This document shows positions 1 to 64,000 of a DNA stretch of 64,000 bases, piece after piece. The DNA is from Gemmatimonadaceae bacterium (lineage in GTDB: Bacteria > Gemmatimonadota > Gemmatimonadetes > Gemmatimonadales > Gemmatimonadaceae), in contig JBJMNO010000024.1 in NCBI GenBank assembly GCA_045804225.1, positions 132,815-196,814 on the forward strand. Reading direction: 5' to 3'. Both the position numbers and the translations under genes were made by a program. Numbering within the stretch: position 1 is the first letter of the stretch; every line of letters begins with the position of its first letter. The notes beneath the pieces are model-generated. The model did no database searches. It was not told the origin of the DNA and saw only the letters and a list, made by a program, of their open reading frames with translations.

Positions 1-405
1 CGTGCGCGTCAACGCCCGCGCCCGTTCCTCATTCGCGATCAATAGCCGGTGGTTGGCGTGTTGCAGGCTCACCCGTCGCCGATTCGTGAGACTCGTTAGG
101 TACACGATGATGAGCCCGTCCATCAGATAGAGCGACGCTTGCGTGAGTGTCTGCGAGCCGGAATACCCCTCGGGCAGCACGAACACCAGGGCGCCGAGTG
201 AGGCCGTGATCAGGAGCGCCAGGACAGCGGGGCCAGTACCCGCAAAGACGCTCGTCACGAGAATCGCGGCGAAGGCGAAGACGAGCGGCGCACCAGAGCC
301 CGTCCACGGCATCAACAGCATCTTCAGCGCAAATGCCGCCGCCACCGCGGCGATGCTGAACGCATAACGCGCCGCTGAGGTCTGGAAGAGCGTCTCGTCG
401 CGCAT
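1..405 (-). CDS. Sensor-protein N-terminal membrane domain (DUF4118-like); 5' part only, gene continues past the window start
   Basis: Not in the ORF track because there is no stop inside the window. My translation of the minus strand from the ATG at 405-403 reads MRDETLFQTSAARYAFSIAAVAAAFALKMLLMPWTGSGAPLVFAFAAILVTSVFAGTGPAVLALLITASLGALVFVLPEG...LTNRRRVSLQHANHRLLIANEERARALTRT. It shows hydrophobic helices followed by a coiled-coil-like linker, as in DUF4118 sensor kinases. I prefer it to the Arg-rich track ORF 29..451. Confidence 0.6.
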   Translation of the reverse strand, partial: MRDETLFQTSAARYAFSIAAVAAAFALKMLLMPWTGSGAPLVFAFAAILVTSVFAGTGPAVLALLITASLGALVFVLPEGYSGSQTLTQASLYLMDGLIIVYLTSLTNRRRVSLQHANHRLLIANEERARALTRT

Positions 406-608
406 GCGAGCGCCTAATCGCATAGGGCGCGGCGTGGGGAGGTGCCGGCAACCGAGTTCACAATGCGAAGCATGCAAAAACTCGGGCCAGCACGAAGGCT
501 CGCGACGCTGTCCGGTCGTACGCGCTTGGTCCAATGGACTGATGGTGAATTGGGCGGGGCGTGATTAGCCTTGCGGGGTATTCACTTCATATCGTATCAC
601 GAGGATCG

Positions 609-1394
609 ATGAACGAGCACGGCCACTTCGCTGTCGCCAACGGACTCAGGATCTATTACGAGACGCACGGACCGGACGACAAAGAGGTGCCGGTCGTGCT
701 GCTTCATGGGGGCGTGGGTGGCATCGAGATGTTCGGTCCGAATTTGCCCGCCCTGGCGCGGAATCGTCGTGTCATCGCAGTCGATCTGCCGAATCACGGA
801 CGCAGCGCCAACGTCGACGGCGTGCTCAGACACGCATCGATGGCGGACCCGATCGCCGCGCTGATCGAGCAGCTCGGCGTACAGCAGATCGATCTGATTG
901 GCTACTCGTTAGGTGGCGGCGTTGCGCTGCAGACGACGATTCGCCATCCGGAGCTCGTACGGACGCTCGTCATCGTGTCGAGTCCGTTCCGGCGCGATGC
1001 GTTTTATCCAGAGATCCTCGCCATCTTCGACCAGATGGGCGCGTCCTTCGGCACGATGATGAAGCAGTCGCCGATGGCGACGCTCTATCCGGAGCGGGAC
1101 TGGGAGCAACTGTTCGAGAAGATGGGCGACCTCCAGCGGCAAGACTTCGACTGGTCACGGGAGGTTGCGAAGATTCGCGCGCCGATGATGCTCATCTTCG
1201 CCGATGCCGACACCTACCGCACCGAGCATATCATCGATTTCTACAAGCTCATTGGCGGCGGCCAGCGAGACGCCGGCTTGGATGGCTCACGGCGCTCACC
1301 GAACCAGCTCGCGATCATTCCGGGGACGACGCACTACAATTTGCTCGATACGACGACGGTTGCCGACATGGTCGAGAAGTTCTTGCCTCGCTAG
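609..1394 (+). CDS. alpha/beta-fold hydrolase
   Basis: Track ORF 561..1394. ATG at 609 is preceded by GAGGA (601-605). Contains an HGGVGG motif and the nucleophile elbow GYSLGG; length is typical. Confidence 0.85.
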   Translation: MNEHGHFAVANGLRIYYETHGPDDKEVPVVLLHGGVGGIEMFGPNLPALARNRRVIAVDLPNHGRSANVDGVLRHASMADPIAALIEQLGVQQIDLIGYSLGGGVALQTTIRHPELVRTLVIVSSPFRRDAFYPEILAIFDQMGASFGTMMKQSPMATLYPERDWEQLFEKMGDLQRQDFDWSREVAKIRAPMMLIFADADTYRTEHIIDFYKLIGGGQRDAGLDGSRRSPNQLAIIPGTTHYNLLDTTTVADMVEKFLPR

Positions 1395-1495
1395 CCAACA
1401 TGGATGGGGCGCGGAAGGCGCGGCCCGTAGGCTTCGTCTGAGGCGCGCGGGATGGCGCGGGCAACCCACTTCCGCTGTCGCTTGCTTGCACGCGA

Positions 1496-2032
1496 TCACA
1501 GCCGGGATTCCAAGCCGCCCGCAGTTGACCGCACCGCGTACAGAAATCGCGCATAACCGATCTCCGCTGCATTCTTCGTCAACTCCACGTTGACCCAGGC
1601 GACGACATCGCCGAACGGCCGATCAGTGAACGGCCATCGTGTTCGCGCCTGCGACGCGAGGTCGGCGTCGGCGAGCTGTGCGAGATGCCCTCGCCACATG
1701 TCCTCCAGCGCCCCCATCCGCGAGCGGACGCCGTGAGCCGAGCCGGGCCAATCGATCTCCTCACGTGTGAGCGTGCCGTCACCAAACGAATGATCGATCA
1801 CCATCGACCACCAGAAGATCATGTGCCAGGTCAGCCAGGCGATGCTGGGCGGACCGAGACCGTATCCTTCATGCTCCGGCCACTCGGCGCGCCAGCGGCC
1901 ATCGGTCCCGCGCCGAACGTGCAATCCACGATCGGATGGACGCCAGAGGCATTCGTCGCTCGTTAAGCTGCCGAGGTGTATGTGCGCGAGTGCACACGCG
2001 GTGTCGAATTGCCGGATCAGGTAGTCGGACAC
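1496..2032 (-). CDS. DinB-family protein
   Basis: 178-aa ORF with a DinB-like four-helix pattern and conserved His positions (HIHLGS..., WLTWHMIFWW). Sits directly downstream of the permease gene. Confidence 0.7.
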   Translation of the reverse strand: MSDYLIRQFDTACALAHIHLGSLTSDECLWRPSDRGLHVRRGTDGRWRAEWPEHEGYGLGPPSIAWLTWHMIFWWSMVIDHSFGDGTLTREEIDWPGSAHGVRSRMGALEDMWRGHLAQLADADLASQARTRWPFTDRPFGDVVAWVNVELTKNAAEIGYARFLYAVRSTAGGLESRL

Positions 2033-4493: not shown

Positions 4494-4665
4494 GCGGAGA
4501 CCCTCGCGTTGATGTACCATTGCCCACGCGGCTCGCGCCTAACGAATACGAGCACTCGATTGCGTGAAAATACGTTCGGAGCCGGCGGCGCGGTGTAAAG
4601 TTTCGGCCAGGTTCGACGGCCGGCCAACTTCCTGCGCCTTCGTCCAATCCCTTAGTCCCTCTTCC

Positions 4666-5385
4666 ATGCCCGAACGTTTCGACGTCTCCAATCGCGGCCT
4701 CACCGAGCTTCCCGCGGAGATTCGCGCGATGGTCGAGCTGCGCGAGCTGTACATCTATGACAACCAGCTCGCGACACTGCCGGACTGGATCGGCGAGCTT
4801 ACCGAGCTTCGCGTCTTGGACGCGAATCGCAATCGCTTCGCGTCACTGCCCGATTCGCTCGGCGATTTGAGCAGTCTCTACTACCTCTATGTATCCGATC
4901 AGCAACGATTGGGCGCGCTGCCGCAAACCATTGGCAAGCTCGGATCGCTGGCGTATCTCAATGCGAGTCACGACGCGCTGACCGAGCTGCCGAAGACCAT
5001 TGGCGAACTGACGGCGCTCGTCGAGCTCCGGCTCGACGACAATGCGATCGCCGAGCTGCCTCCGGGTGTTCGCAATCTCAGCAAGCTCCGCGAGTTGCAT
5101 CTCACCAGCAACCAGCTGCGCGCGCTCCCTGATTGGATTGGCGACGTCCGGAGCTTGAGGCGGCTCGGTCTTCGGAACAACAAGCTTCGCGAGCTGCCGG
5201 AATCGTTAGGTGCGCTGAGCGAGCTGCGCGACCTCGACCTACGCGGCAACGAGCTGCGCGTGCTACCGGACGTCATTGGCAGGCTTCCATCGCTGGAACG
5301 ACTGGATCTGCGGTGGAATCCACTCGGTGCGCCGCCGGCGTGGATGGGCGCGCTCGAGGCGCGGGGATGCACGGTGTGGCGTTAG
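4666..5385 (+). CDS. Leucine-rich repeat protein (about 10 tandem 23-aa LRRs), no signal peptide seen
   Basis: Internal ATG at 4666 (MPERFDVSNRGLTELPAEI). Repeated LxxLxxLxLxxNxLxxLPxxIGxL units run to the C-terminus. The TAG stop lies inside a CGTTAGGC motif. Confidence 0.8.
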   Translation: MPERFDVSNRGLTELPAEIRAMVELRELYIYDNQLATLPDWIGELTELRVLDANRNRFASLPDSLGDLSSLYYLYVSDQQRLGALPQTIGKLGSLAYLNASHDALTELPKTIGELTALVELRLDDNAIAELPPGVRNLSKLRELHLTSNQLRALPDWIGDVRSLRRLGLRNNKLRELPESLGALSELRDLDLRGNELRVLPDVIGRLPSLERLDLRWNPLGAPPAWMGALEARGCTVWR

Positions 5386-5482
5386 GCCGTCGCCAAGGCT
5401 TATCGGGATGGATAAGTCTGCTTGCCGTAATTTTTCCCCGCGCGTACGTTCGGCGAACTCGAACCGATCTCGTGGAGGGCTC

Positions 5483-5715: not shown

Positions 5716-6102
5716 CTATTCGGCGCGAGCGGTGTGGGCTTTCGTACTGGGCTTCGCCGCTCGCTCGCGGATGCGAGACCGCACGAGCTTTTCCACGAGC
5801 GTCGAAGGCAGGGGATGTGCTGGGTCGAAGCGAATGGTGCCTTTGCTCGTGCCATAATCGGCGAGGGCCGCTGCGTGCTCGGCGATCGGGGCGGCGCCCG
5901 GATAGAACGCGCAGTGTTTGCTCGCGGCGCCGAACCAAACCATGATCTTTCCGTCGAGACGAAACGCCGGCAGCTGGTAGCTGATGCACTCTTCCGCCGC
6001 CGGCGCGGCGCGCTTGATTGCAACACGCAGCCTCTCCAGCGCCGCACGCTTGTCCTTCGTTAGGCGCCCGAGATAGTCATCGATCGATGACGGCGTGGGC
6101 AT
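5716..6102 (-). CDS. DUF1801 (YdhG-like) domain protein
   Basis: MPTPSSIDDYLGRLTKDKRAALERLRVAIKRAAPAAEECISYQLPAFRLDGKIMVWFGA... is the typical DUF1801 layout. Start chosen at the internal ATG 6102. Confidence 0.7.
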   Translation of the reverse strand: MPTPSSIDDYLGRLTKDKRAALERLRVAIKRAAPAAEECISYQLPAFRLDGKIMVWFGAASKHCAFYPGAAPIAEHAAALADYGTSKGTIRFDPAHPLPSTLVEKLVRSRIRERAAKPSTKAHTARAE

Positions 6103-6427: not shown

Positions 6428-7426
6428 ATGCACGGCCAATTCGTTTGGTACGAGCTCATGACCCCCGACACCGAAGCGGCGAAGCGTTTCTACGCGCCGA
6501 TCACCGGGTGGGGGACGCAGCAATTCGACAAGGATTACGCGATGTGGACGACCGCGGGCGGACCGATAGCCGGAGTGTACGCTCTTGGCGATGATATGCG
6601 CCATGCCGGCGTGCCGCCACACTGGATGCCGTACATCGAATCGAACAACGTGGACGAGACGGCGCGCTTGGCGAGCACGATCGGCGGGACGGTGATGGTA
6701 CCGCCTCGGGACATCCCGAACGTCGGCCGTTTCGCGCTGATCCGCGATCCGCAGGGTGCGGTGTTCGGCACGTACAAAGCGAACGGCCCATCGCAGAGCT
6801 GGGATGGCACGCCTGTGCTGAGCCGCTTCTCCTGGCACGAGCTGATGACCACGGACCAAAAGAAGGCCCTCGATTTCTACCGGAAGCTGTTTGGCTGGGA
6901 GACCACTGGCGAGATGGACATGGGCGGCGGGAATACATACTCCATGTTCGGCAAGGGACAGCCGTTCGGAGGTATCTTCAATCGTCATGGGGACATGGCG
7001 AACATGCCCCCGTTCTGGCTCGTGTACATCTACGTGAAGGACGTAAAGAAGGCTGTTGACATCGCAACCAAGAACGGCGCATTCGTTCAGCGTCCGCCAA
7101 TGGAGGTTCCGGGTGGCGGTACGATCGCCATCCTCGGCGACCCGCAGGGGGCGGCGTTTGCGCTCCATTCGTCTCAGACGTCGTCGCGGCCAGCCGCGAA
7201 GCAATCCAGTGCAGCGAAAAAGCGAGGCGCCGCGAAGAAGAGTGGTGCGGCCAAGAAGATCAGCACGGGGAAGAAGCGAACCGCAGGTAAAAAGAGAGCT
7301 ACCGCAAAGAAGAGTAGCGCCGCGAAGAAGCGGCCCGTCGCCAAGAAGCGCACGAACGCGCGAAAAGCAACCAAGAAACGATCCGCGACCAAGAAACGGT
7401 CCGCGGCTAAGAAACGCCGTCGTTAG
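6428..7426 (+). CDS. VOC (glyoxalase/bleomycin-resistance fold) protein, two VOC repeats, fused to a ~80-aa Lys/Ala-rich histone-H1-like tail
   Basis: MHGQFVWYELMT... and a second FSWHELMT... repeat. The C-terminal tail reads AAKKRGAAKKSGAAKK...KKRSAAKKRRR (about 7180-7423). The track start at 6401 is TTG; ATG 6428 is more plausible. Confidence 0.8.
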   Translation: MHGQFVWYELMTPDTEAAKRFYAPITGWGTQQFDKDYAMWTTAGGPIAGVYALGDDMRHAGVPPHWMPYIESNNVDETARLASTIGGTVMVPPRDIPNVGRFALIRDPQGAVFGTYKANGPSQSWDGTPVLSRFSWHELMTTDQKKALDFYRKLFGWETTGEMDMGGGNTYSMFGKGQPFGGIFNRHGDMANMPPFWLVYIYVKDVKKAVDIATKNGAFVQRPPMEVPGGGTIAILGDPQGAAFALHSSQTSSRPAAKQSSAAKKRGAAKKSGAAKKISTGKKRTAGKKRATAKKSSAAKKRPVAKKRTNARKATKKRSATKKRSAAKKRRR

Positions 7427-7438
7427 GGAGGAGAGACG

Positions 7439-7834: not shown

Positions 7835-7853
7835 TCGCCTCCTCGGCTTGTGC

Positions 7854-8399
7854 CTAACGCCGCGAGGCGGTTTTGGCGGTGCGTTCGACAACGCCTGTGG
7901 AGTCGATATGGAAGACGACCGTTCCATATAGGCACTCCAGTTCCTTCGCGCCCGAGCCGGGAACGGTGACCCATATGCAGTTGTTCTTGTCGAAATACAA
8001 TTCTCCAACGCCCGTGGAATCGTGCCTCGAGTATGAGAGCTCTCCTGTGCCGACTCCAGTGGAGTCGAGGACATACTCCTGATTTCCGACGGTGCATGTC
8101 TCCATCGGAGCATGTCCGGACTGGGCCCTGAGCATTGTGCAAGGCGCCGCGCCGATGACCACGAGCTTCGGTCCGGGCTTGAGCCGCAATTCGCCTACAC
8201 CCGTCGAGTCCGCGCGGAGGAGGAGGCTATTCCCAACGTGGCACATCATTCCCTGTGACTGATGACCGGCCACTGGAGCGAGCACGCAACTCTTCTTTCC
8301 AAGCTTGATTGGCGCGCGTTGCGCAGATGCCGGTTCAGCGAGTGAACCAAGAACGAGAAAGAGCAACACTCCGCTCTGCCGTAACGAGCTACGCCACAT
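7854..8399 (-). CDS. Secreted Cys-containing protein with four DSTGVGEL-type repeats (hypothetical)
   Basis: Signal-like start MWRSSLRQSGVLLFLVLGSLAEPASAQ (ATG 8399). Repeats are ADSTGVGEL, LDSTGVGTGEL, HDSTGVGEL and IDSTGVVE. Confidence 0.55.
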   Translation of the reverse strand: MWRSSLRQSGVLLFLVLGSLAEPASAQRAPIKLGKKSCVLAPVAGHQSQGMMCHVGNSLLLRADSTGVGELRLKPGPKLVVIGAAPCTMLRAQSGHAPMETCTVGNQEYVLDSTGVGTGELSYSRHDSTGVGELYFDKNNCIWVTVPGSGAKELECLYGTVVFHIDSTGVVERTAKTASRR

Positions 8400-20359: not shown

Positions 20360-20360
20360 A

Positions 20361-40583: not shown

Positions 40584-40625
40584 GCTGCAAAAAGGCTCCT
40601 TTGTTGTTGCCTAACGAGCATCGCA

Positions 40626-45270: not shown

Positions 45271-45331
45271 CGCCCCGCGCCCCGCCACACGCCACACGCC
45301 ACGCGCCACTCTCTACCCTCTACCCTCTACC
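45271..45331 (-). repeat. Inverted copy of the same composite: minus-strand (GGTAGAG)x3 (GTGGCGY)x4 GGGGCGCGGGGCGG
   Basis: Read directly. Starts right after the stop (45333-45335) of the GNAT-like gene. Confidence 0.9.
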
Positions 45332-45332
45332 G

Positions 45333-55276: not shown

Positions 55277-58200
55277 ATGCTTCCTCGTTTTGTCAGACGC
55301 GGTGCGCTCCTGACAGCGCTCGCGCTCGCTTACGCTTCCACTCCATCGGTGCTTCGCGCCCAAGCCGCTACCGGCACGGTGCGCGGACGTGTCACCGAAG
55401 GGTCAGGCGGACGCGGCATTCCTGAAGTCCAGGTCACGGTCACGGGCACGCGCATTGGCGCGCTCACGAACGCGAATGGTGACTTCACCCTGGTCGCGGT
55501 GCCGGTGGGCGCGCGCCCGCTCGAGGCGCGCCGCATCGGCTACCAGCCGGTGACGCGCACGATCACCGTGACTGCCGGCGACAACGACGCGGGCGCCATC
55601 GCGCTCAACGTGAGCGCCGTGAACCTCAATGAGGTCGTGGTCACCGGCACCGGGACGGCAACCGAGAAGAGGGCGATCGGCACCAGCATCGCCACCGTCG
55701 ACTCAGCTTTGATTAGCCGAGCGGAAGCGGTGACGGTCGATCAGGCGATGCAGGGGAAGATTCCCGGCGCGCAGATCACGCAGAACTCCGGCAATCCGGG
55801 GGAGGCGGTATCTCGGTTCGTCTGCGAGGAACGAACTCGTTCATCTCGGGCTCCGACCCGCTCTACATCGTTGACGGCGTGATCATCGACAACGGCTCGG
55901 CGCAGCTGGCGGACCTCGGTATTCGCTCGAATCCGCAGAACCGCCTCGCCGATATCAACCCCGACGACATCGAGCACATCGAGGTGACGCGTGGGGCCGC
56001 CGCGGCCGCACTCTATGGCTCGCGCGCGAACAACGGCGTCGTGCAGATCTTCACGAAGCGCGGCACGATCGGGAAGGCGCACTACACCGCGTCGACGCGA
56101 TTCTCGGAGAGCGAGCTGCGCGAGCAGCAGGCATTCAACTTCTATCCCTACAACGAGGCGGGACTTCCCGTCAATCGCTACAACTATCAGGACCAGATCT
56201 TCCATCGCGCGCCGGCGAATGAGCAGAACCTCACGGTCGAAGGCGGCAACGATCAGACTCGCTACTACATCAGCGGCAACTTCGCCAACGAAAACGGCAT
56301 CATGCGGTCGACGTCGTCGCGCCGCTCGGGTGCGCGCATCAACCTGCAGCAGCAACTCGCGTCGAAGCTACTCGGCAACGTCAGCGCGAACTACATCACG
56401 ACGCATAACGAGATGCAGGCGTTCGGCGAGCAGAACGACTACGGCATCATGGGCTCGCTCTTCTTCGCGCCGACGAGCGTCGACTTCCGGCCGGTGAACG
56501 GCATCTATCCCTTGCCGCCGGCGTTAGGTACGAATCCGCTGCTGGCGATCGACAAGATTCGCAATCCGCAGCAGATCGATCGCTTCATCGGCTCCACCAA
56601 GCTCACGTGGACGCCGCTCAGCAACGTCCTCCTCGACTACACGCTCGGTCTCGACAACACCGGATTCGAGCAGCGGCAGTTCGTGCCGCGCAACGCGGTG
56701 CTCGGCACGGCGCCCCTCGCGACGGGACGCTCGCAGTCGGTATTCCAGGCTTCGCGCGTCATCAATCAGGACGGCGTCGGCAGCTACACATGGAACCCGA
56801 TCGGGCCGTTCGATCTGCGCACGACCGCTGGTGCGAACTACACGTCGCAGCGCATTCGCGTGACGAGTGCGACCGCCAACGGCCTCGCGCCGGTCGGCGA
56901 TCTGGTGAGCGCGGGCTCGATCTTCGCCGCGGCGCAGACTGACGTCGAGCTGCGCACGCTCGGCTTCTACGGCCAACAGGAAGTGGCGTGGCGGAACAAG
57001 CTGTTCCTGACGGGTGGTGTGCGGTATGACGCATCGTCTACCTTCGCGCCATCCGAACGCTGGCAGGCATTCCCGAAGCTCTCGGCGTCCTACGTCGTGG
57101 TGGACAACAAGTCGGGCGCGCTCAACAACCTGCGACTGCGTTCCGCGTTAGGCTGGGCAGGCAGCCAGCCGAGTATTACGAACGCGTATTCGCAGTTCAT
57201 CGCGTACACACAGCTGCCGTTCGCCGGCCGTCCCGGCTTCGTGAACGACATCACCTACGGCAACCCGAACCTCAAGAACGAGCGGGCGCGGGAATGGGAG
57301 GTCGGCACGGACGTTGGCTTCCTCGACGGTCGCGTCTCCACCGAAGCGACGTACTACAATCGGCTCGTTTCGGATCTGCTCTTCTTCAAGCCGCTGCCGA
57401 CGAGCACTGGCTTCTCGCGTCAGTTCGCGCCGATCGGATCGATGTCGAACAAGGGTTTCGAGCTGCTGTTGCGCACGCAGAACCTCGATCGCCCGAACGT
57501 CAACTGGTCGTCGACAGTTACGTACGCGCGCAACAAAAACCTCGTCGAGAGCCTGAGCATTCAGGACTTCCAGTCGGCTGGCGGCTACCCGAATCGCATT
57601 CGCGCGGGCTACCCGGCGGGCGTGTTCTACGGGTCGTACGCCGCGCGTGACTGTGTGACGGGCGCCCTCTTGCTCGACTCGTTAGGCCGCTACCGCCGGA
57701 GCAATCAGACGGTCGACATGGGTGCGACGCTCGCCCAGCGGGAGGCGCTGAGCCACGGCACCTGTAACGACTCGCTCAACAAGATCATCGGCGATCCGAA
57801 TCCCAAGTGGACCGGCTCCTTCTTGAATGAAGTGACGCTCGCGCGACGAGTTCGGTTGCGCGCGCTGCTCGATGGCGTGTTCGGCAACCAGATCATGAAT
57901 CTTTCGACCCGCGCGGAGAACGCGGGCATCGCGAGCAATTCGAAGTCGTACGAGCGCGAACTGCTTCCGTATGGCGATCCACGCAAGCTGCCGCCGGGCT
58001 TCAACGCGCGCACGCAGGGCATCTTCGAGTACTGGATCGAGGACGGCACCTTCGTGAAGCTGCGCGAGCTCGCGGCGAGCTATACGCTCGATGCGTCGGC
58101 GATTCGCCGCTATTTCCGAGACGGCGTCGATCTCACGCTGTCTGGCCGCAACCTGTACGTGTGGACGAAATACAGCGGTTACGATCCCGAGATCAATCTT

Positions 58201-58330: not shown

Positions 58331-59707
58331 ATGCACATGCGCATGATGAAGTGTCGCGCGGTGATCGTCGCCGCGCTGTCGGCGGGCGCGCTCACCGCGT
58401 GCAAGCTCGACGTCCAGAATCCAAATCAGCCGACGCAGGATCAGGTGACGACCAGCGTTGACGGTGTGATCGCGCTCGCGACGGGAGTGCAGGGTCGCTT
58501 TGCGCAATCGTACGGCAACTTTGCCTACATGGCGGGACTCGTCACCGATGAATTCGCGTCGACGAGCGCGGCGCTGATCTCGATCAGCGACGCGGAGCAG
58601 GGGGCCGTTCCCAGCGGTACCGGCATCGACGAGAACGTCTTCAACTCGATATACCGCACGGTGCGCACGGCGGACGATCTCCTTGCCGGGTCGGTCGCGC
58701 TCGGCTCGCAGTTCGAGCCGGGTACGCGAAGCGGCATTCGGGCTCTGGCCTTTGCGCTCAAAGCGGAATCGTTAGGTGAAGCGATCCAGTCGTACCAGAA
58801 GATTCCGATCAACACGTACAACATCACGGCGCCGATATACGTCGGTCGCGCGGAGGCGTTGAAGTACATTCGCGCGCTGCTCGATTCGGCGGCGGCGGAG
58901 ATTGCCACGCCGCCGAGCACGTTCTTCAATGCGAACATCCTCACGCCCGGGGTGAGCTTACCGAACGTGATTCAGCTCTTCCGCGCGCGATATGCGCGGA
59001 TGGCCAACGACGATGCGACGGCGCTGGCGGCGTCGAATCTGGTCGCCCGCAGTGGTCCCACGGCATTGTCGCTGCTCAGCTTCCCGTCGCCGACGGTGAA
59101 CTTCTTCGCCAACGTCACCGGCGGCACCAACGGTATCGCGCCGCGCCGGCAGTACCGGACGTCGATGGCGGCACAGGATCAGCGCTGGCAATACTTCGTC
59201 ATCCCGTCGGCGACGCTCACCGGGCGCGTCGGCGCGCCGCTTGACCCCTGGTCGCGCTACGCGAATCCGCAGGCGCCGATGCCGGTGTACATGCCTGACG
59301 AGGCTCTCCTCATCAAGGCGGAAGCGCTAACCCATCAGAATCAGCTCGCCGAAGCCCAGGCCGTGCTCGACTCCGTACGTACGGATTGCACCGGCGGCCG
59401 TGGCATCGACGATCCCAAGGCATGTCTGCCAGCGTTAGGCACGCAGCTCACGCAGGCGCAGCTCATCACCGAGATCTACAACCAGCGGAAGTACGAGCTG
59501 TTCAGCACCGGTCTGCGTTGGGAAGACACGCGCCGCCTGGCGGCGATCCAAGGACCGGTGGCGGCACCAGCAGTGCCGACCTCGGGTCAGCGCTGCTGGC
59601 TGCCGTACGCGGTCGGCGATCGCAACGCCAACCCGAATGCCACGTTCACCGCGCTCCCCGATCCCACGGAGCCCACGTCGTTCCCCGCCAGCTGCCCGAC
59701 CACGTGA
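58331..59707 (+). CDS. SusD/RagB-family outer-membrane lipoprotein
   Basis: Lipobox AGALTAC. RagB/SusD-like helical sequence. Lies immediately downstream of the SusC-like gene. Confidence 0.85.
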   Translation: MHMRMMKCRAVIVAALSAGALTACKLDVQNPNQPTQDQVTTSVDGVIALATGVQGRFAQSYGNFAYMAGLVTDEFASTSAALISISDAEQGAVPSGTGIDENVFNSIYRTVRTADDLLAGSVALGSQFEPGTRSGIRALAFALKAESLGEAIQSYQKIPINTYNITAPIYVGRAEALKYIRALLDSAAAEIATPPSTFFNANILTPGVSLPNVIQLFRARYARMANDDATALAASNLVARSGPTALSLLSFPSPTVNFFANVTGGTNGIAPRRQYRTSMAAQDQRWQYFVIPSATLTGRVGAPLDPWSRYANPQAPMPVYMPDEALLIKAEALTHQNQLAEAQAVLDSVRTDCTGGRGIDDPKACLPALGTQLTQAQLITEIYNQRKYELFSTGLRWEDTRRLAAIQGPVAAPAVPTSGQRCWLPYAVGDRNANPNATFTALPDPTEPTSFPASCPTT

Positions 59708-59715: not shown

Positions 59716-60525
59716 ATGACCACTTTACCTTCATACAACCGGATCGCGGTTAGGCGCGCGATTATCGCCGTCGCCGCCGGCGTCCTCTCGGCGACGACGC
59801 TCGCGTGCGGCACGAAGGAGGCTCCCACCGGCCTTCAGCCGTCGGGCACGACCGGACGCATCCGCTTCGTGAATCTCATCAACGATCCGGCGCGCAATCC
59901 CGTGAACGCGATTCTCGAGAAGGTGCCGTTCGGCGTCAACCTCGGCTACGCGGGAACGACGCCATCCAGTCTTCCGGCGCCGAACACCGCGAACTATTCG
60001 GCGGTCCTCACCGGCGATCGATCGCTCGTGTTGAAGAAGACGGCTGACACAACCGTCACGGTGGCGTCGTTTACACTGCCGATTGCCGCGAACGAAGACC
60101 GTACGGTGTACGCGACGGGCGGCGCGGGCGGCGGCACCGTGACCTCGTTCGTGACGAAAGACACGATGGGCGTCGCGATTCCCGCGGGACAAGCGCGAGT
60201 GCGCGTCGTCAACATGAGCCCCGCGGCGGGGGCTGTCGATGTATTCATCACCGCGCCTAACGCCGATCTCTCCACGGCAACGCCGGTCGCTAGCAATGTT
60301 GGCGCGCAGGCGGTATCGGCCTACGTCAACATCCCCGCACTCACGTCATTTCAGGTGAGGGCTGTGCCGGCGGGCACTGCTCCCGCGAATCGTTCGGCGG
60401 CGGTGCTGGTCTCCATCACCCCAACTACGGTAACTCTCGCCGCGGGCAGCGGTCGCACGATCGTCATCGCCGACCGGGCCGCCGGCGGAGGACCGCCAAC
60501 GGCGTTCGTGTTGACGGATCAGTAG
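59716..60525 (+). CDS. DUF4397-domain lipoprotein
   Basis: MTTLPSYNRIAVRRAIIAVAAGVLSATTLAC has a lipobox. Repeated IRFVNLI... and VRVVNMSPAAGAVDVFI blocks are typical of DUF4397. Confidence 0.75.
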   Translation: MTTLPSYNRIAVRRAIIAVAAGVLSATTLACGTKEAPTGLQPSGTTGRIRFVNLINDPARNPVNAILEKVPFGVNLGYAGTTPSSLPAPNTANYSAVLTGDRSLVLKKTADTTVTVASFTLPIAANEDRTVYATGGAGGGTVTSFVTKDTMGVAIPAGQARVRVVNMSPAAGAVDVFITAPNADLSTATPVASNVGAQAVSAYVNIPALTSFQVRAVPAGTAPANRSAAVLVSITPTTVTLAAGSGRTIVIADRAAGGGPPTAFVLTDQ

Positions 60526-61021: not shown

Positions 61022-63709
61022 GTGCCGCGCTCGTTCCGCTTCACGCATAGCCGTCGCGACGTCACCGACGAGATCGGGTTTCATCTCGAGATGCGAACCC
61101 GCGAATTCATCGAGCGCGGGATGTCTCCCGAAGACGCACGGCGCGCCGCCGCGGCCTCGTTCGGTGACGTGGCCGCGATCGAGGCCGAGTGCCGCCACGA
61201 GCGGACGCAGCGTGTGCGCACCGAGGCACGCCGCGATTGGCTGCAGGGGACGAGCCTCGATCTGAAGGTTGCGCTTCGCGGTCTCTGGCGCCGACCGGCG
61301 TTCACCGCTGCGGCCATCCTCACCCTTACGTTAGGCATCGGAGCCGCGGCCGCCGTCTTCGCCATCGTCTCGGGAGTGCTTCTCCGGCCGCTTCCGTATC
61401 GCGAACCGTCGCGATTGATGATGGTGTGGATGGAAGCGAACGACGTCCGCGGTTCGTCGAGCAAGTTGCCATTGTCGGCGCCGCTGTATCTCGACATGCG
61501 CCGCGACGTACCAGCGCTTTCGCTGAATGCCGCCTTTCGCACATGGTCGTACGCGTTGAGCGAAGGTGGAACTCCTGAGCAGCTCGCCGGCGTCAAAGCG
61601 AGACCCGCACTTTTCGCCACGCTCGGCGTCCGTCCCACCATTGGACGTGACTTTAGCGATGCGGACGCTCTTCCTGGCGCACCGCACGTCGCGATCATCA
61701 GCGACGGCCTCTGGCGACGTCGCTGGGCCGGTGATCCGTCTGTGGTGGGCAAGCTCGTGACGCTCAGCGGCGAGAGGTTCACGATCATTGGTGTCGCACC
61801 GAAGGACTTCGGGTTTCCTCGCGGCGCCGAGCTGCCAAGCGGTTTGCAGTTTCCACTGCGCACGGATATCTGGACGCCGCTCGCCTTCGACCAAGCCGAC
61901 CTGAAGAATCGCTGGACGCTCAACCTCGCTGCTGTCGCCCGACTTGGCAGCGGGGTGACCGAGGCTACAGCGGATGCGCAGCTTTCGGCGCTCGCGAAGC
62001 GCATCAACCAGGAATATCTCAAGGGTAAGGATCGTTTCCGCTTCCAGGCGGTCTCGCTCGCGGAACAAGCCGCTGCGCCCGTACGCCGCACCTTGCTCGT
62101 CCTCTTGGGCGCGGTGGCGCTCGTCCTTGTGATTGCCTGTGTGAACGTTGCCAACTTGCTCATCGCGCGGCTAGGCGGCCGTCGTCGCGAGCTCGCCGTA
62201 CGCACGGCGTTGGGAGCTGGTGGCGCGCGGCTCACGCGGCAGCTGGTCCTCGAGAACACACTGCTCGCCTCCCTCGGCGCTGTGGGCGGACTCGTGGTAG
62301 CGACGCTCGCGACGCGCGTCATGCTTGCACTCGTACCGGGGCAGCTCCCGCGAGCTGACGACGTTGCCATCGATTGGCGCGTTCTACTCGCCTGTGCCGT
62401 CTGCGCGCTCCTTGCAGGAATAGTCTTCGGCATCGCGGCCGCCGCGCACGCGCGTGGGGCGCCACTCGCTTCGGCGCTCTCGGGTGGCAGCGCCCGCGCG
62501 ACGGCCGGCGTGTCGCGAACTTCTGGACGACGCATGCTCGTCGGGGCGCAGATCGCGCTCTCGCTCGTGCTGCTCGTCGCCGCCGGTCTCCTGGCCGCGA
62601 GCTTCGTTAGGCTTCAGCACGTCGACGCTGGCTTCGTGCCCGACCACGCGGTCACCGCGCGCGTCGATTATCCGGTCGCGGGCCAATTCGACTTCGCCCG
62701 CGACGGCGCGACGTGGTCGGCCTTCTTCACTCAGCTCGTCGAGCGCGCGGGCCGGCTGCCTCACGTGACAGCCGCAGGCGCAGTGAGTGGATTGCCACTC
62801 GCGGGTGATCCGGAGTCGTCCGATTTTGAGGTGGAGGGCCGCCTCTCACCCGACCCCGGCCAACGCCCTAAGGCTGAATATGCCGTTGTCGCGGGCGATT
62901 ACTTTCGCGCGATGGGCATTCACACCGTCTCCGGCCGCACCTTCGCGAATACCGATCGCGCCGAAACGCCACGCGTCATCGTCATCAATCGCGAGCTGGC
63001 GCGGAAGTTTTTCCCGAGCGAGCAACCGATCGGTCGTCGGATCATTTGCGGCTGCGACTTCACGCCAGGGTCGCGCGAGATCGTCGGGATCGTCGAGAAT
63101 GTGCACGTGACGTCGCTCGAGGATCCAATCGTTCCCGCCGTGTACGTGCCCGAGACACAGATGACGTATCCCAGTCTCAGCCTCGTATTGCGAACGACGG
63201 GCGATCCGAGCGCCGTGTTACCGGCACTACGTGGCGAGCTCCACGCGCTCGCGCCGGACATCGCGCTTCAGCAAGCTCGCACGCTCACCGATGTCGCGGC
63301 GACCTCCCTCGCGCGGCAGCGATTCAATCTGGTGTTGATCGGCGCCTTTGCCACCGTCGCGCTCGCGCTGTCGATCGTCGGTCTCTACGGCATCATCGCC
63401 CTTGGCGTCGGCGAGCGCCGGCGCGAGCTCGGCGTTCGTCTCGCGTTAGGCGCGCGCCCCGCCAGCGTGCTCGCTCTTGTTCTTGGTGAGGGGCTACGCA
63501 TCGCCGCGGTAGGCATCGTAGTGGGAACGCTCGCCGCTGCTGCCGCCGCTCGATTGTTGCGCGGGATGTTGTATGAAGTCGGCGCCGCCGACCTGACGAT
63601 CTATATAGGTGCGGCCATGGTGGTCGGTGTCGTCGCCATGGCATCGACATGGATACCAGCACGTGCGGCGACTCGTGTCGATCCGGCCATTGCGCTCCGG
63701 TCGGATTAG
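61022..63709 (+). CDS. ADOP-family ABC transporter permease (MacB/FtsX-like)
   Basis: 895 aa, GTG start 10 nt after padR. Has the N-terminal PadR-associated helix, the LKVALRGLWRRPAFTAAAILTLTLGIGAA motif, and two FtsX domains. Confidence 0.9.
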   Translation: MPRSFRFTHSRRDVTDEIGFHLEMRTREFIERGMSPEDARRAAAASFGDVAAIEAECRHERTQRVRTEARRDWLQGTSLDLKVALRGLWRRPAFTAAAILTLTLGIGAAAAVFAIVSGVLLRPLPYREPSRLMMVWMEANDVRGSSSKLPLSAPLYLDMRRDVPALSLNAAFRTWSYALSEGGTPEQLAGVKARPALFATLGVRPTIGRDFSDADALPGAPHVAIISDGLWRRRWAGDPSVVGKLVTLSGERFTIIGVAPKDFGFPRGAELPSGLQFPLRTDIWTPLAFDQADLKNRWTLNLAAVARLGSGVTEATADAQLSALAKRINQEYLKGKDRFRFQAVSLAEQAAAPVRRTLLVLLGAVALVLVIACVNVANLLIARLGGRRRELAVRTALGAGGARLTRQLVLENTLLASLGAVGGLVVATLATRVMLALVPGQLPRADDVAIDWRVLLACAVCALLAGIVFGIAAAAHARGAPLASALSGGSARATAGVSRTSGRRMLVGAQIALSLVLLVAAGLLAASFVRLQHVDAGFVPDHAVTARVDYPVAGQFDFARDGATWSAFFTQLVERAGRLPHVTAAGAVSGLPLAGDPESSDFEVEGRLSPDPGQRPKAEYAVVAGDYFRAMGIHTVSGRTFANTDRAETPRVIVINRELARKFFPSEQPIGRRIICGCDFTPGSREIVGIVENVHVTSLEDPIVPAVYVPETQMTYPSLSLVLRTTGDPSAVLPALRGELHALAPDIALQQARTLTDVAATSLARQRFNLVLIGAFATVALALSIVGLYGIIALGVGERRRELGVRLALGARPASVLALVLGEGLRIAAVGIVVGTLAAAAAARLLRGMLYEVGAADLTIYIGAAMVVGVVAMASTWIPARAATRVDPAIALRSD

Positions 63710-63726
63710 AGGAGGACAAGTGCACG

Positions 63727-63757
63727 AAAAGAGCGCAAACTACGGTGCGCTCTTTTC
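63727..63757. terminator. Bidirectional intrinsic terminator between convergent genes
   Basis: AAAA-GAGCGCA-loop-TGCGCTC-TTTT, with an A-tract and a T-tract flanking the stem. Confidence 0.7.
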
Positions 63758-63783
63758 GGTTCGCTCTTCGTGTACTGAAAGAT

Positions 63784-64000
63784 CTATCGCTTGGCCACCC
63801 CAGCCACCGATCCTGCCATATACGGATTGCCGCCGAGTGCCGCCGAAATATCGGCGATGGCTTTTTGGGCACGAACACTATTGCCCGCCTCGTCGAGTGG
63901 GGGCGAGACGACGGCGACTCCCCACTTTCCTGGCGACACGGCGAGCAACCCGCCGCCGACACCGCTCTTGGCGGGCAGGCCTGTCATATAGAGCCACTTG
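63784..64000 (-). CDS. glsA: Glutaminase A, C-terminal part (gene continues beyond the window end)
   Basis: ...[44 protein letters not shown] is the conserved glutaminase C-terminus. The reading frame is open to the window edge. Confidence 0.75.

Follow-up and report, generated by a model that had tools for sequence, protein, structure and literature searches.

A 64,000-nucleotide stretch of DNA from a Gemmatimonadaceae MAG, here called the window, carries the core GTTAGG/CCTAAC 75 times (54+/21-), and 55 of these copies are the octamer CGTTAGGC, a word that opposes the base composition of the genome. The question raised by this locus is what the word does and how it is kept at such density. 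No published description of it was found in the literature, in agreement with the initial annotation, which regarded the motif as undescribed.

Results

All 54 plus-strand and 21 minus-strand core coordinates initially listed were reproduced exactly (Table 1), and the recount likewise returned 55 copies of CGTTAGGC (39+/16-) and 12 of the second form, CGTTAGGT (10+/2-). CGTTAGGC ties for top frequency among the 8-mers of the window, and the word occurs about once per 1,000 letters in motif-plus Gemmatimonadaceae DNA. Markov models predict 1.3 (order 1), 2.9 (order 3) or, with order 2 and the motif masked, 0.6 octamers in the window; in 300 synonymous-codon shuffles, which left all proteins and the codon pool of each gene unchanged, ~1.3 octamers were expected in coding DNA, where 49 are observed. 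The enrichment, previously estimated from composition, amounts to 50- to >180-fold, and there are 0.97 copies per kb of coding DNA and 1.5 copies per kb of non-coding DNA. The extended consensus is K-CGTTAGG-Y-R around the core CGTTAGGC, with a weak T/G 5' of the C and a purine 3' of the Y; the flanks share nothing else out to +/-40 nt, so the word, as the initial annotation stated, does not belong to a longer dispersed repeat. Of the variants inside the six-base core, those with a change at position 3, 5 or 7 are near background, and several with a change at position 4 or 6 show 3- to 8-fold enrichment; other one-mismatch enrichment lies mostly at end positions 1 and 8.

Table 1. Copies of the word in the window, with their genes and readings
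Form	Positions	Strand	Gene	Reading and comparison
CGTTAGGT	94..101	+	1-423(-)	antisense, TAC CTA ACG AGT = YLTS
CGTTAGGT	907..914	+	609-1394(+)	sense, TCG TTA GGT = SLG
CGTTAGGC	4537..4544	-	intergenic	
CGTTAGGT	5204..5211	+	4666-5385(+)	sense, TCG TTA GGT = SLG; relative L084 ...GGC
CGTTAGGC	5380..5387	+	4666-5385(+)	TAG stop
CGTTAGGC	6058..6065	+	5716-6129(-)	antisense, CGC CTA ACG = RLT
CGTTAGGG variant	7421..7428	+	6401-7426(+)	TAG stop
CGTTAGGC	7852..7859	-	intergenic in gene model	would end ORF 7854-8438(-)
CGTTAGGC	9026..9033	+	kinase 8457-11297(-)	antisense, CCT AAC = PN
CGTTAGGC	9474..9481	-	kinase 8457-11297(-)	sense, GCG TTA GGC = ALG
CGTTAGGC	10427..10434	-	kinase 8457-11297(-)	sense, GTT AGG = VR
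CGTTAGGC	10686..10693	-	kinase 8457-11297(-)	sense, TCG TTA GGC = SLG
CGTTAGGT	11501..11508	+	11478-12713(-)	antisense, CCT AAC = PN
CGTTAGGC	12387..12394	+	11478-12713(-)	antisense, CTA ACG = LT
CGTTAGGC	13003..13010	+	DUF5916 12734-15298(-)	antisense, CCT AAC = PN; non-synonymous, relatives PG/PD (alignment column 855)
CGTTAGGC	14458..14465	+	DUF5916 12734-15298(-)	antisense, ACG CCT AAC GTC = TPNV; word in 9 lineages, motif-minus CCG AAC
CGTTAGGA variant	14777..14784	-	DUF5916 12734-15298(-)	sense, TCG TTA GGA = SLG; word in 10 lineages, motif-minus CTC GGN
CGTTAGGC	15997..16004	+	15431-16159(-)	antisense, CCT AAC = PN
CGTTAGGC	16297..16304	+	NUDIX 16217-16690(-)	antisense, PN
CGTTAGGC	17571..17578	-	M28 peptidase 16807-18555(-)	sense, VR
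CGTTAGGC	17794..17801	-	M28 peptidase 16807-18555(-)	sense, CCG TTA GGC = PLG
CGTTAGGT	21007..21014	+	20423-21874(-)	antisense, PN
CGTTAGGC	23343..23350	+	TonB receptor 21874-24819(-)	antisense, PN
CGTTAGGC	24968..24975	+	intergenic	
CGTTAGGC	27265..27272	+	AraC 26653-27696(-)	antisense, LT
CGTTAGGC	27480..27487	+	AraC 26653-27696(-)	antisense, PN
TGTTAGGC variant	28384..28391	+	27711-28490(+)	sense, CTG TTA GGC = LLG
CGTTAGGC	29200..29207	-	28909-29646(-)	sense, SLG
CGTTAGGC	30429..30436	-	29665-30726(+)	antisense, PN
GGTTAGGC variant	30707..30714	+	29665-30726(+)	sense, TGG TTA GGC = WLG
CGTTAGGC	30879..30886	+	Lhr helicase 30729-33233(-)	antisense, LT
CGTTAGGC	31376..31383	+	Lhr 30729-33233(-)	antisense, PN
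CGTTAGGC	31556..31563	+	Lhr 30729-33233(-)	antisense, PN
CGTTAGGT	31950..31957	-	Lhr 30729-33233(-)	sense, ALG
CGTTAGGC	32561..32568	+	Lhr 30729-33233(-)	antisense, PN
CGTTAGGC	32895..32902	-	Lhr 30729-33233(-)	sense, ALG
CGTTAGGC	32999..33006	+	Lhr 30729-33233(-)	antisense, PN
CGTTAGGC	33731..33738	+	S41 peptidase 33573-34922(-)	antisense, PN
CGTTAGGC	34020..34027	+	S41 peptidase 33573-34922(-)	antisense, LT
CGTTAGGC	34169..34176	+	S41 peptidase 33573-34922(-)	antisense, PN
CGTTAGGT	35420..35427	+	GNAT 34997-35563(-)	antisense, LT
CGTTAGGC	36762..36769	-	36373-36858(-)	sense, VR
CGTTAGGC	37197..37204	-	36900-37559(-)	sense, SLG
CGTTAGGC	37860..37867	+	37564-37995(-)	antisense, PN
CGTTAGGC	39326..39333	+	MmsA 39102-40583(+)	sense, GTT AGG = VR; non-synonymous, since relatives have VE/IQ/VA
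CGTTAGGC	39517..39524	+	MmsA	CCG TTA GGC = PLG; six relatives CTC/CTG GGC
CGTTAGGC	39838..39845	+	MmsA	GCG TTA GGC = ALG; relatives CTC/CTG GGC
CGTTAGGC	40094..40101	+	MmsA	GTT AGG = VR; L001 GTG CGC; 96% relative L083 CGTGAGGC
CGTTAGGC	40609..40616	-	intergenic, MmsA to next gene	
CGTTAGGC	42004..42011	+	41406-42623(+)	sense, TLG
CGTTAGGC	42618..42625	+	41406-42623(+)	TAG stop; antisense PN in overlapping gene 42577-43140(-)
CGTTAGGG variant	43453..43460	-	intergenic	
CGTTAGGT	45331..45338	+	45333-46028(-)	TAA stop
CGTTAGGC	45938..45945	+	45333-46028(-)	antisense, PN
CGTTAGGC	46651..46658	-	46025-46900(-)	sense, VR
CGTTAGGC	47008..47015	+	intergenic	
CGTTAGGC	49113..49120	+	FdhF/YdeP 48823-51099(-)	antisense, PN
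CGTTAGGT	49702..49709	-	FdhF/YdeP 48823-51099(-)	sense, ALG
TGTTAGGC variant	50266..50273	-	FdhF/YdeP 48823-51099(-)	sense, LLG
CGTTAGGC	50556..50563	-	FdhF/YdeP 48823-51099(-)	sense, VR
CGTTAGGC	50731..50738	+	FdhF/YdeP 48823-51099(-)	antisense, LT
CGTTAGGC	52727..52734	+	MFS 52177-54222(+)	sense, PLG
CGTTAGGT	53429..53436	+	MFS 52177-54222(+)	sense, SLG
TGTTAGGC variant	53924..53931	+	MFS 52177-54222(+)	sense, MLG
CGTTAGGC	54552..54559	+	54425-55117(+)	sense, ALG
CGTTAGGT	56522..56529	+	TonB receptor	sense, ALG
CGTTAGGC	57146..57153	+	TonB receptor	sense, ALG
CGTTAGGC	57680..57687	+	TonB receptor	sense, SLG
CGTTAGGT	58770..58777	+	SusD-like 58331-59707(+)	sense, SLG
CGTTAGGC	59433..59440	+	SusD-like 58331-59707(+)	sense, ALG
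GGTTAGGC variant	59748..59755	+	59704-60525(+)	sense, VR
CGTTAGGC	60255..60262	-	59704-60525(+)	antisense, PN
CGTTAGGC	61329..61336	+	ADOP2 61022-63709(+)	sense, ACG TTA GGC ATC GGA = TLGIG; paralog ADOP1 GCC CTC GGC ATC GGC
CGTTAGGC	62605..62612	+	ADOP2 61022-63709(+)	sense, VR
CGTTAGGC	63444..63451	+	ADOP2 61022-63709(+)	sense, ALG

Within the window, 28 copies are read as Leu-Gly (NCG-TTA-GGY), the number originally estimated, 9 as Val-Arg (GTT-AGG), 21 as antisense Pro-Asn (CCT-AAC) and 8 as antisense Leu-Thr (CTA-ACG), and 9 are intergenic or at a gene edge; the sense:antisense split relative to genes is 37:29. The word is a DNA-level signal: it turns up in each of the four stop-free frames, on either strand and also between genes. 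Of the five stop codons attributed to it, four stand (5383-5385, 7424-7426, 42621-42623 and 45333-45335), whereas the fifth (7854-7856) belongs to an ORF unsupported by the gene model. The proposed use of rare codons is borne out, as 28 of the 54 TTA codons lie inside the motif, and the codon contrasts with the ADOP1 paralog and the MmsA orthologs at Leu-Gly sites were both recovered (Table 1). The initial annotation also held that codon choice is driven at the DNA level while the protein is kept; the former holds, but the latter does not always, since some copies are non-synonymous and change the encoded protein relative to relatives, and motif-plus lineages have twice the frequency of Pro-Asn dipeptides. 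The word occupies as many as 68% of x-Pro-Asn contexts. These observations support selection or drive that acts on the word as DNA and runs counter to codon usage.

The word is clade-specific to one group of uncultured soil Gemmatimonadaceae: motif-plus relatives contain 181 copies in 214 kb, whereas motif-minus sister lineages of equal GC, which serve as an empirical null, contain none in 217 kb. Copies lie at orthologous codons across lineages only ~70% identical in protein, and a given codon site can bear the word in as many as 10 lineages; motif-minus lineages encode the same residues with common codons (TCS CTC GGN versus TCG TTA GGN, and CCG AAC versus CCT AAC, in motif-plus lineages). 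When coordinates were compared by hand, without alignment, L168 (the 74% ADOP2-ortholog lineage) had copies at the same gene-start offset as those at 56522..56529 and 57146..57153, as did both L165 and L168 for 57680..57687. Against 95%-identical relatives, the motif has diverged by 1.0% and the sequence overall by 5.0% (P = 0.004), and motif divergence is five times below that of the flanks. Given this low divergence and the recurrence of the word at the same codons across lineages, each copy is maintained.

The reported excess of cores on the + strand was found in both the left (30:14) and right (24:7) parts of the window (binomial P = 1.8e-4), and it persists after normalisation to compatible amino-acid contexts, of which 45/111 (41%) are occupied on the + strand and 15/89 (17%) on the - strand (Fisher P = 3e-4). 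Occupancy is 38% (+) versus 11% (-) in +-strand genes and 43% versus 19% in --strand genes, which supports the view that polarity in the window lineage follows the DNA strand, independently of transcription direction. Four-fold-site GC skew in the window is positive in either gene set (+0.038 and +0.055), which accords with a leading-strand role for the motif-rich strand, a role that the + strand of the window probably has. As a general property, however, the polarity held only in part: other motif-plus lineages (L110, 21:27; L165, 13:15; L107, 9:10) lack the bias. Across loci, motif orientation does not follow the four-fold GC skew, and L168 has a + motif bias yet a negative skew.

The word is also carried by presumed viruses, at least two phage genomes with 1.1-3.3 copies per kb, a density host-like or higher, and we infer that these phages infect motif-plus hosts. 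The 44-kb phage contig IMGVR_UViG_3300019458_000055 holds 48 cores versus ~7.5 expected, encodes RecT, a replication initiator, TerL, portal and endolysin, and has every long ORF on one strand; its cores run 3+:8- to the left and 31+:6- to the right of a breakpoint at ~8.5 kb that was picked post hoc, and the switch adjoins the replication-initiator gene. Phage L205/L293, which encodes virion proteins and an endolysin, has 3.0-3.3 word copies per kb versus 0.17-0.46 copies expected per locus. Related phages hold 6 copies in total in 808 kb.

Discussion

The density of the word forces rare codons and amino-acid changes and thereby points to an undescribed, cis-acting 'self' signal that is read by a DNA-processing machine. 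Among the candidate classes initially raised, the KOPS type is rejected with a skew of 72% at best and ~45-50% in other lineages, and the HIP1 type fails on palindromy. The main rival is a DNA uptake sequence of the DUS/USS type, which agrees with how dense and clade-restricted the word is and with its proteome effect; this explanation nevertheless appears unlikely, because inverted-repeat or terminator pairs of the word are absent, the strand bias is poorly matched, and phage genomes carry the word at densities similar to or above those of hosts, with an orientation switch beside the replication-initiator gene in one of them. We favour, with a probability of roughly 40%, a Chi-like signal that a helicase-nuclease reads according to its orientation and that phages copy; this reading would fit the points on which an uptake sequence fails and has direct phage precedent.

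If the word is Chi-like, its reader would presumably be the clade's double-strand-break helicase-nuclease (AddAB/RecBCD/AdnAB type), which would read CGTTAGGC on single-stranded DNA and be switched from degradation to RecA loading. Because each copy would shorten the DNA lost from a free end, it would confer a small advantage, independent of position and coding status, that could outweigh preferences for codons and, where residues are variable, for amino acids. Favoured copies would face the oncoming enzyme, with 5'-CGTTAGGC-3' on the strand ending 3' at the break (at a collapsed fork, the leading strand), and the model would in this way produce a strand bias. Phages that depend on the same enzyme, or need to survive it, would copy the word. 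Against the Chi-like reading, it is hard to see how nuclease specificity evolves for an initially near-absent word; strand bias is lacking in L110, L165 and L107; and from locus to locus motif orientation and four-fold GC skew do not go together.

Chi is ~2.5 times as dense in precedent phages as in the host, and 20/23 Chi sites of LLS share one common orientation (PMC12315714; PMC3784561). High Chi density in lambdoid phages accompanies the absence of a Rec module and RecBCD inhibitor, unlike the 44-kb word-bearing phage, which has its own RecT-like recombinase. In E. coli, Chi occurs once per ~5 kb and exceeds expectation a few-fold (PMC8022716), whereas the enrichment of the word described here is far higher than that reported for any known Chi, and its x-Pro-Asn occupancy and the doubling of Pro-Asn far exceed reported Chi effects.

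Results

The window, which has a GC content of 63.7%, contains 75 GTTAGG cores, 54 of them on the + strand and 21 on the - strand, and these counts, together with the coordinates of all the cores, reproduce exactly those of the initial annotation. The octamer CGTTAGGC accounts for 55 copies (39+/16-) and CGTTAGGT for 12; the former is joint first among all 8-mers of the window by frequency. The density of the CGTTAGGC-type word is 1.05 per kb in the window and 0.4-2.4 per kb in motif-plus relatives, that is, related Gemmatimonadaceae lineages that carry the octamer. Markov models predict only 1.3 octamers (order 1), 2.9 (order 3) or 0.6 (order 2, with the copies masked) against the 55 observed. 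Gene calling gave 53 genes, which make up 87% of the window, and a null model in which synonymous codons were shuffled within each gene (300 rounds) yielded approximately 1.3 octamers in coding DNA compared with 49 observed; the enrichment claimed earlier is thus upheld under a codon-aware expectation.

The logo of the word reads K-C-G-T-T-A-G-G-Y-R, with positions -1 and +9 weakly preferred. Past this logo, no flank conservation was found out to +/-40 nt among 220 pooled copies; because the flanks are unrelated, the sequence is a bare word and no part of a longer dispersed repeat, as had been proposed. Spacing in the window is over-dispersed (0 pairs closer than 104 bp vs 8 expected, P = 2e-4; CV 0.81), and close pairs are present in the denser motif-plus lineages L110 and L107. 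A search for inverted-repeat or terminator pairs in the window found none, the minimum gap between copies being 104 bp. Among one-mismatch variants, enrichment is seen at the end positions 1 and 8 as well as at core positions 4 and 6, and levels close to background at core positions 3, 5 and 7. The variant CGCTAGGC is depleted (0 vs 6), and C-to-T or G-to-A neighbours are enriched or unchanged (TGTTAGGC, 10 vs 0; CGTTAGGT, 41 vs 1; CGTTAAGC, 4 vs 0).

On each strand, one frame of the word holds a stop codon (TAG, TAA), and all four other frames are used: in the window, 28 copies are read as NCG-TTA-GGY (Leu-Gly), 9 as GTT-AGG (Val-Arg) and, antisense, 21 as CCT-AAC (Pro-Asn) and 8 as CTA-ACG (Leu-Thr). 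Intergenic or gene-edge positions hold 9 of the 75 copies, in line with the 12.7% non-coding share of the window, and 28 of the 54 TTA codons of its genes fall within the word. The word supplies the stop codon of four well-supported genes; at least five had been claimed. Readings at the level of RNA or translation, such as bldA-like TTA regulation, were rejected because copies are antisense, occur in four frames and are also intergenic.

The initial annotation held that the protein sequence is kept while the codon choice is driven at the DNA level. This proved correct at conserved Leu-Gly sites: the Leu-Gly of MmsA is written CTC/CTG GGC in six relatives, and one ADOP paralog of the window (ADOP2) uses TTA GGC where the other (ADOP1) has CTC GGC. 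The claim did not extend to every copy, since some are non-synonymous; in MmsA, V-R stands where relatives have V-E, I-Q or V-A, and in DUF5916, P-N stands in place of P-G or P-D. At the proteome level, Pro-Asn dipeptides are doubled in motif-plus lineages (2.85 vs 1.43 per 1000; observed/expected 1.72 vs 0.85).

Relatives were gathered in a metagenome scan with the DUF5916 protein, which gave a graded series of identities. The word is present in all DUF5916 relatives at >=77% identity (0.4-2.4 per kb). At 62-72% identity, roughly one relative in two has it, at 0.4-2.1 per kb, and the rest lack it, as do all the more distant relatives. Pooled, motif-plus loci contain 181 octamers in 214 kb and motif-minus loci 0 in 217 kb at the same GC, and one identical word is used across lineages of 61-71% GC. 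Sampling by ADOP permease gave orthologous, motif-plus loci (L165-L168) and paralogous loci from motif-minus genomes (L169-L172). A contig scan with MmsA gave mostly distant homologs among the matches listed, and the closest Gemmatimonadaceae listed (79% identity) lacked the word. No substitute hyper-abundant "dialect" word was found in motif-minus relatives, whose loci of 10-20 kb are too short to reveal a Chi-sized enrichment of approximately 3-fold. In a single-gene tree, motif-plus lineages form adjacent clades with a few motif-minus lineages interleaved, and at this low resolution the word may have been gained once and then lost or gained several times.

Individual sites are maintained across lineages. 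Contigs from two other metagenomes (L081-L084) are 94-96% identical to the window and carry the same motif sites (21 shared, 2 window-only and 3 relative-only), and the sites recur in independent JGI, ENA and NCBI assemblies. In DUF5916, the word occupies identical codon columns in up to 10 lineages at approximately 66-85% protein identity (table). Compared with 95%-identical relatives, the word has diverged by 1.0%, the sequence as a whole by 5.0% and the 50 nt next to the word by 5.7-7.0% (Poisson P = 0.004), and at 76-80% DNA identity approximately 40-50% of sites are still common. Low divergence within the word and this share of common sites together mean that sites outlast neutral sequence by far and yet turn over. 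No dip in flank divergence of the kind expected from local homogenisation by recombination was detected within +/-600 bp of the copies, and conservation is confined to the word. The close contigs also differ from the window in gene content: L084 (94% identical) has at 1071-2773, corresponding to window 5386-5464, an extra amidohydrolase gene of approximately 1.7 kb with three motif copies, which is a recent indel between close strains, and the 96%-identical L082 lacks a 1.1-kb segment with a DUF3761 gene (44221-45321).

Positions of the TGTCATCCTGAGCGAAGCGAAGGATCTGCTGTT element in the window and sites of the word shared between lineages in DUF5916
Feature	Window positions	Protein motif	Motif-plus codons	Motif-minus codons
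TGTCATCCTGAGCGAAGCGAAGGATCTGCTGTT element	12531-12690			
TGTCATCCTGAGCGAAGCGAAGGATCTGCTGTT element	16756-16800			
TGTCATCCTGAGCGAAGCGAAGGATCTGCTGTT element	19969-19990			
TGTCATCCTGAGCGAAGCGAAGGATCTGCTGTT element	20256-20290			
TGTCATCCTGAGCGAAGCGAAGGATCTGCTGTT element	34953-35030			
TGTCATCCTGAGCGAAGCGAAGGATCTGCTGTT element	38241-38275			
TGTCATCCTGAGCGAAGCGAAGGATCTGCTGTT element	43136-43170			
TGTCATCCTGAGCGAAGCGAAGGATCTGCTGTT element	43360-43375			
TGTCATCCTGAGCGAAGCGAAGGATCTGCTGTT element	48721-48800			
TGTCATCCTGAGCGAAGCGAAGGATCTGCTGTT element	51175-51248			
DUF5916 shared site		DS-L-GW	TCG TTA GGN	CTC
DUF5916 shared site		TPNV	CCT AAC	CCG
DUF5916 shared site		IVRQ	GTT AGG	GTC CGN

Several other repeats are present in the window. 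A second, unrelated dispersed element of approximately 33 nt, TGTCATCCTGAGCGAAGCGAAGGATCTGCTGTT, looks REP/MITE-like (table); GTCATCCTGA or its complement occurs 13 times, partly in tandem or inverted pairs, and mostly in intergenic DNA or at gene edges. Heptamer arrays, (GTAGAGG)n and (CCACGCG)(CCCTCTA)n, lie at 44838-44864 and 45270-45330, inverted to each other, within and at the right edge of the DUF3761 segment, and further arrays, (ACCCACA/ACCCTCT)n and (CGCGCCA)7, are found at 20360-20420 and 11410-11459. Tandem repeats with a period of 20/41/61 bp (25749-25973; approximately six copies, 77-78% identity) lie inside a 1.8-kb stretch in which no gene was called (24.8-26.6 kb).

Occupancy, the share of amino-acid contexts able to hold the word synonymously that do hold it, is 45/111 on the + strand of the window and 15/89 on the - strand (Fisher P = 3e-4), and x-Pro-Asn-[VADEG] contexts are occupied in 21 of 33 cases. 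The + strand is preferred in genes coded on the + strand (38% vs 11% occupancy) and equally in sign in those coded on the - strand (43% vs 19%); as both gene sets favour the + strand, the bias follows the DNA strand and not transcription, which bears out the polarity described in the initial annotation. The orientation skew amounts to 72% in the window, compared with 44-67% for the other host loci. L085 mirrors the bias of the window but overlaps the same region; L168 is + biased (18:9), L090 stands at 9:2, and no strand bias is seen in L110 (21:27, at 2.1 per kb), L107 (9:10) or L165 (13:15). In the window, four-fold sites show a positive GC skew on the + strand for either gene set. Across loci, the sign of the skew agreed with motif orientation in the first set but failed to do so once L165 and L168 were added, the bias of L168 being opposite in sign to its four-fold skew; since the two do not track each other, we do not claim replication polarity for the host. 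In the TonB-receptor gene, several sites appear to be common to lineages in an unaligned hand comparison of offsets from the gene start, and orthologous loci are therefore not independent samples. The receptor itself (55277-58320) is split in the window: one ORF, 55277-55882, has the CarboxypepD_reg domain, and a second that overlaps it, 55879-58320, has the plug and barrel. In L165 and L168 the receptor is a single gene of 1012-1014 aa; the split reflects a frameshift, a pseudogene or a sequencing error.

When IMG/VR was scanned for a two-copy pattern, most hits were matches by chance or longer repeats of an unrelated kind (L177, L180 and L222), but true motif-rich phage DNA was also recovered. 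Among these repeats, L177 (IMGVR_UViG_3300038412_000035) contains at 190-5120 eight same-strand copies of the hairpin-like CGCCGTCCATCCGTTAGGCGGATGCCGATGAGGC, most of which end in CTGATGAG, a hammerhead-ribozyme-like core unrelated to the word. Two further viral loci, L193 (547-1690) and L262 (1634-3150), carry pairs of GCCTAAC...GTTAGGC/T, 10-115 bp apart (mostly 50-115), which recur every 200-400 bp and resemble an integron attC cassette array.

Two phages are rich in the word. L205 and its 99% relative L293, which code for virion structural proteins and an endolysin, have CGTTAGG 26 and 14 times, respectively (3.3 and 3.0 per kb; 0.46 and 0.17 copies expected), on both strands and in the same codon contexts as in bacteria; 78 distant relatives of this phage (808 kb) hold 6 copies altogether. 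The second, IMGVR_UViG_3300019458_000055, a contig of 44 kb pieced together from four loci that overlap, encodes a RecT-like annealing protein, terminase, portal protein, tail proteins, an endolysin, a DNA methyltransferase, a second, tRNA-methyltransferase-like protein and, at 10.4-11.5 kb, a replication initiator. It has 48 cores (34+:14-) against approximately 7.5 expected. Their orientation is 3+:8- up to approximately 8.5 kb and 31+:6- beyond, with a breakpoint that was picked after seeing the data; the switch adjoins the replication-initiator gene and is independent of transcription, every long ORF being on one strand. From the word alone we infer that the hosts of both phages are motif-plus bacteria. 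That phages copy the word suggests that it is important for DNA to survive inside the cell.

Discussion

The word beats codon preference, is specific to a clade, is orientation-sensitive in some genomes and is shared by phages, and these properties require an advantage at the DNA level for every copy. Its orientation sensitivity and its sharing by phages are best fitted, by analogy, by a Chi-like signal that would be read by a putative helicase-nuclease, a reading to which we assign a probability of roughly 0.4. As a close precedent, Chi is the commonest octamer of the coliphages LLS and P1, at approximately 2.5 times the density in the host, and 20 of the 23 Chi sites of the LLS phage lie in one orientation (PMC12315714; PMC3784561); in E. 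coli, there is one Chi per approximately 5 kb, a few-fold above expectation (PMC8022716). Against the Chi-like reading stand an enrichment without precedent, the opposition of the word to genome composition and the absence of polarity from some motif-plus lineages. No RecBCD/AddAB, competence, pilin, methyltransferase or Vsr genes were found in the window, in which Lhr helicase is the sole DNA-repair gene. Of the classes named in the initial annotation, the Chi type fits best and uptake sequences fit in part, whereas KOPS fails on skew and HIP1 on palindromy.

A surface DNA-uptake receptor of the competence machinery that prefers CGTTAGGC could also have spread the word by molecular drive, through more frequent import and recombination of the fragments bearing it and with no function inside the cell, and this explanation, which we consider unlikely, naturally accounts for the takeover by a word that opposes genome composition. 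It explains the extreme enrichment, the size of which, like the density of approximately 1 per kb, is similar to the familiar figures for USS and DUS; the presence or absence of one word within a single family and across lineages of differing GC; the effect on Pro-Asn; and the even spacing in the window. The halo of variants at positions 1, 4 and 8 and the depletion of CGCTAGGC also favour it. The proteome effect described for USS is a reading-frame bias, as cited in 10.1101/2025.10.24.684340, and that source places about half of DUES in terminators, whereas the word forms no inverted-repeat or terminator pairs in the window and its intergenic excess is mild. Uptake does not explain these missing pairs, nor a DNA-strand bias of 72%, nor the phage data: mobile elements are typically DUS-poor by the account in PMC7371117, yet phage structural genes carry the word at host-like or higher density, and one phage switches orientation beside its replication-initiator gene. 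Moreover, the over-dispersed spacing is not seen in L110 and L107, competence is unreported for this group, and our literature search found no paper joining 'Gemmatimonas' with 'DNA uptake sequence'. A strand bias independent of transcription, the same phage switch and a mean spacing of approximately 1 kb, over-dispersed in the window, would agree with another replication-polar signal that is no recombination hotspot. Such a signal could be a DNA-translocase guide of the KOPS/SRS type, a sequence imparting chromosome architecture, a site for a nucleoid protein or an extended site for priming on the lagging-strand template, and any phage relying on the replication functions of its host would require it too. 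Some DnaG primases prefer TTA/CTA starts, and the word contains TTA, but no octamer-specific bacterial primase is known. We regard such a signal as improbable: the skew is far under that of KOPS (72% at best, and about 50% in L110, L165 and L205), approximately 30-50% of copies are in the 'wrong' orientation, the density is well above that of any known translocase guide, and thousands of individually weak protein sites rarely override codon usage to this extent. A KOPS/SRS guide in particular was rejected, as skew in that class is well above 80%.

It is very improbable, in our judgement, that the word is maintained as in a HIP1-like system, with an orphan or phage-borne DNA methyltransferase to recognise it and a linked repair bias by which it is restored or created. 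The enrichment lies within the HIP1 range, given as 15- to 300-fold in PMC5861425, orthologous sites are conserved above neutral expectation, the word is present in all DNA replicating in the cell, phages included, and the 44-kb phage has a DNA methyltransferase together with the tRNA-methyltransferase-like protein. However, the word is no palindrome (CGTTAGGC reads GCCTAACG on the opposite strand), the neighbours that Vsr-type repair would deplete (TGTTAGGC, CGTTAGGT and CGTTAAGC) are enriched or unchanged, the window has neither a methyltransferase nor a Vsr gene, and strand bias and orientation switch are left without account. Hardly any credence is due to the view that the word has no dedicated function and is a by-product of composition or codon usage, a footprint of a dispersed repeat or mobile element, an integron attC site or an assembly artefact. 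The word does fit the integron core-site consensus GTTRRRY, and the viral scan yielded attC-type arrays of GCCTAAC...GTTAGGC pairs in L193 and L262; in the window, by contrast, the copies stand alone and form no pairs at 50-100 bp, so that the RYYYAAC/GTTRRRY pairs 50-150 bp apart that define attC are not found and the true arrays differ. A REP/MITE or other dispersed repeat was rejected because no similarity extends beyond the core out to +/-40 nt. Composition is contradicted by the codon-aware null (1.3 expected vs 49) and by relatives of equal GC without a copy in 217 kb, and an artefact by the same sites in JGI, ENA and NCBI assemblies. Dispersed repeats, attC sites, base composition and an artefact of assembly are all excluded. 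The probability left after these named candidates belongs to something as yet undescribed.

Full-text literature searches found no published description of the word, or of Gemmatimonas with uptake sequences or over-represented oligonucleotides, in agreement with the initial statement that no such motif had been described. Phenomena of this class are known. What is new is the word itself, its phylum, how strong the effect is and the way in which enrichment of the USS kind comes together with polarity of the Chi kind and copying by phages. To our knowledge, genome-wide words of proven or suspected function are few (Chi, KOPS, DUS/USS and HIP1) and come almost all from Proteobacteria, Firmicutes and cyanobacteria; the present word would be the first in Gemmatimonadota, a phylum that is abundant in soil but has hardly been cultured. 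It also ranks among the most extreme cases, as it prevails over codon usage at as many as two thirds of the sites compatible with it and alters protein composition. We tentatively suggest, as a possibility, that a sub-clade of Gemmatimonadaceae adopted a word nearly missing from all other DNA as a pass-signal, or self-tag, for a processive machine that degrades or imports DNA, under a pressure so strong that the word occupies 40-70% of compatible codon contexts, reshapes dipeptide usage and is copied by the phages of the clade. If true, the word would act either as a 'hyper-Chi', in which drive of the USS kind is joined to the polarity of Chi, or as the cis element of a tag-dependent defence nuclease of a novel sort. 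If the word matters for the survival of DNA in the cell, it would bear on how bacteria discriminate self from foreign DNA. Its all-or-none presence among sister lineages offers a clean comparative search for the reader protein and, in practice, the word is a putative marker of phage host range and marks the contigs of this clade in soil metagenomes.

Compared with known systems, the word resembles DUS of Neisseriaceae and USS of Pasteurellaceae in being a hyper-abundant word of approximately 8-10 nt, present at approximately 1 per kb in all frames and confined to one family-level clade, with a proteome effect, a halo of near variants and, in the window, spacing more even than chance. Unlike them, it lacks inverted-repeat or terminator pairs and an alternative dialect in sister lineages, shows a DNA-strand bias (in the window lineage), is abundant in phages, one with an orientation switch, and belongs to another phylum, in which competence is not known. 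The KOPS/SRS words of FtsK/SpoIIIE are likewise asymmetric octamers, whose orientation follows replichores; KOPS, which are rich in G, occur far less often than the word and with a much stronger skew (for the word, skew <=72% at approximately 1 per kb). HIP1 of cyanobacteria (GCGATCGC), the function of which is still debated, shares with the word its length of eight, a similar enrichment, occurrence in genes against codon choice and conservation at orthologous positions beyond neutral expectation, but it is a palindrome with two methyltransferases and is phylum-wide, whereas the word is asymmetric, polar in places and limited to a sub-clade of one family. Like Chi, the word is short and asymmetric, is over-represented both within and outside coding DNA, prefers, in the window lineage, one DNA strand whatever the gene direction, and differs between bacterial groups; certain phages, with hosts inferred, copy it above host density, and with a strong orientation preference. 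The density range of AddAB-type Chi words includes approximately 1 per kb. Unlike Chi, which is enriched a few-fold, the word is enriched 50- to more than 180-fold, runs against base composition, forcing rare codons (TTA, CTA, AGG and CCT) and amino-acid changes, and lacks strand bias in some motif-plus lineages, and its reader enzyme is hypothetical.
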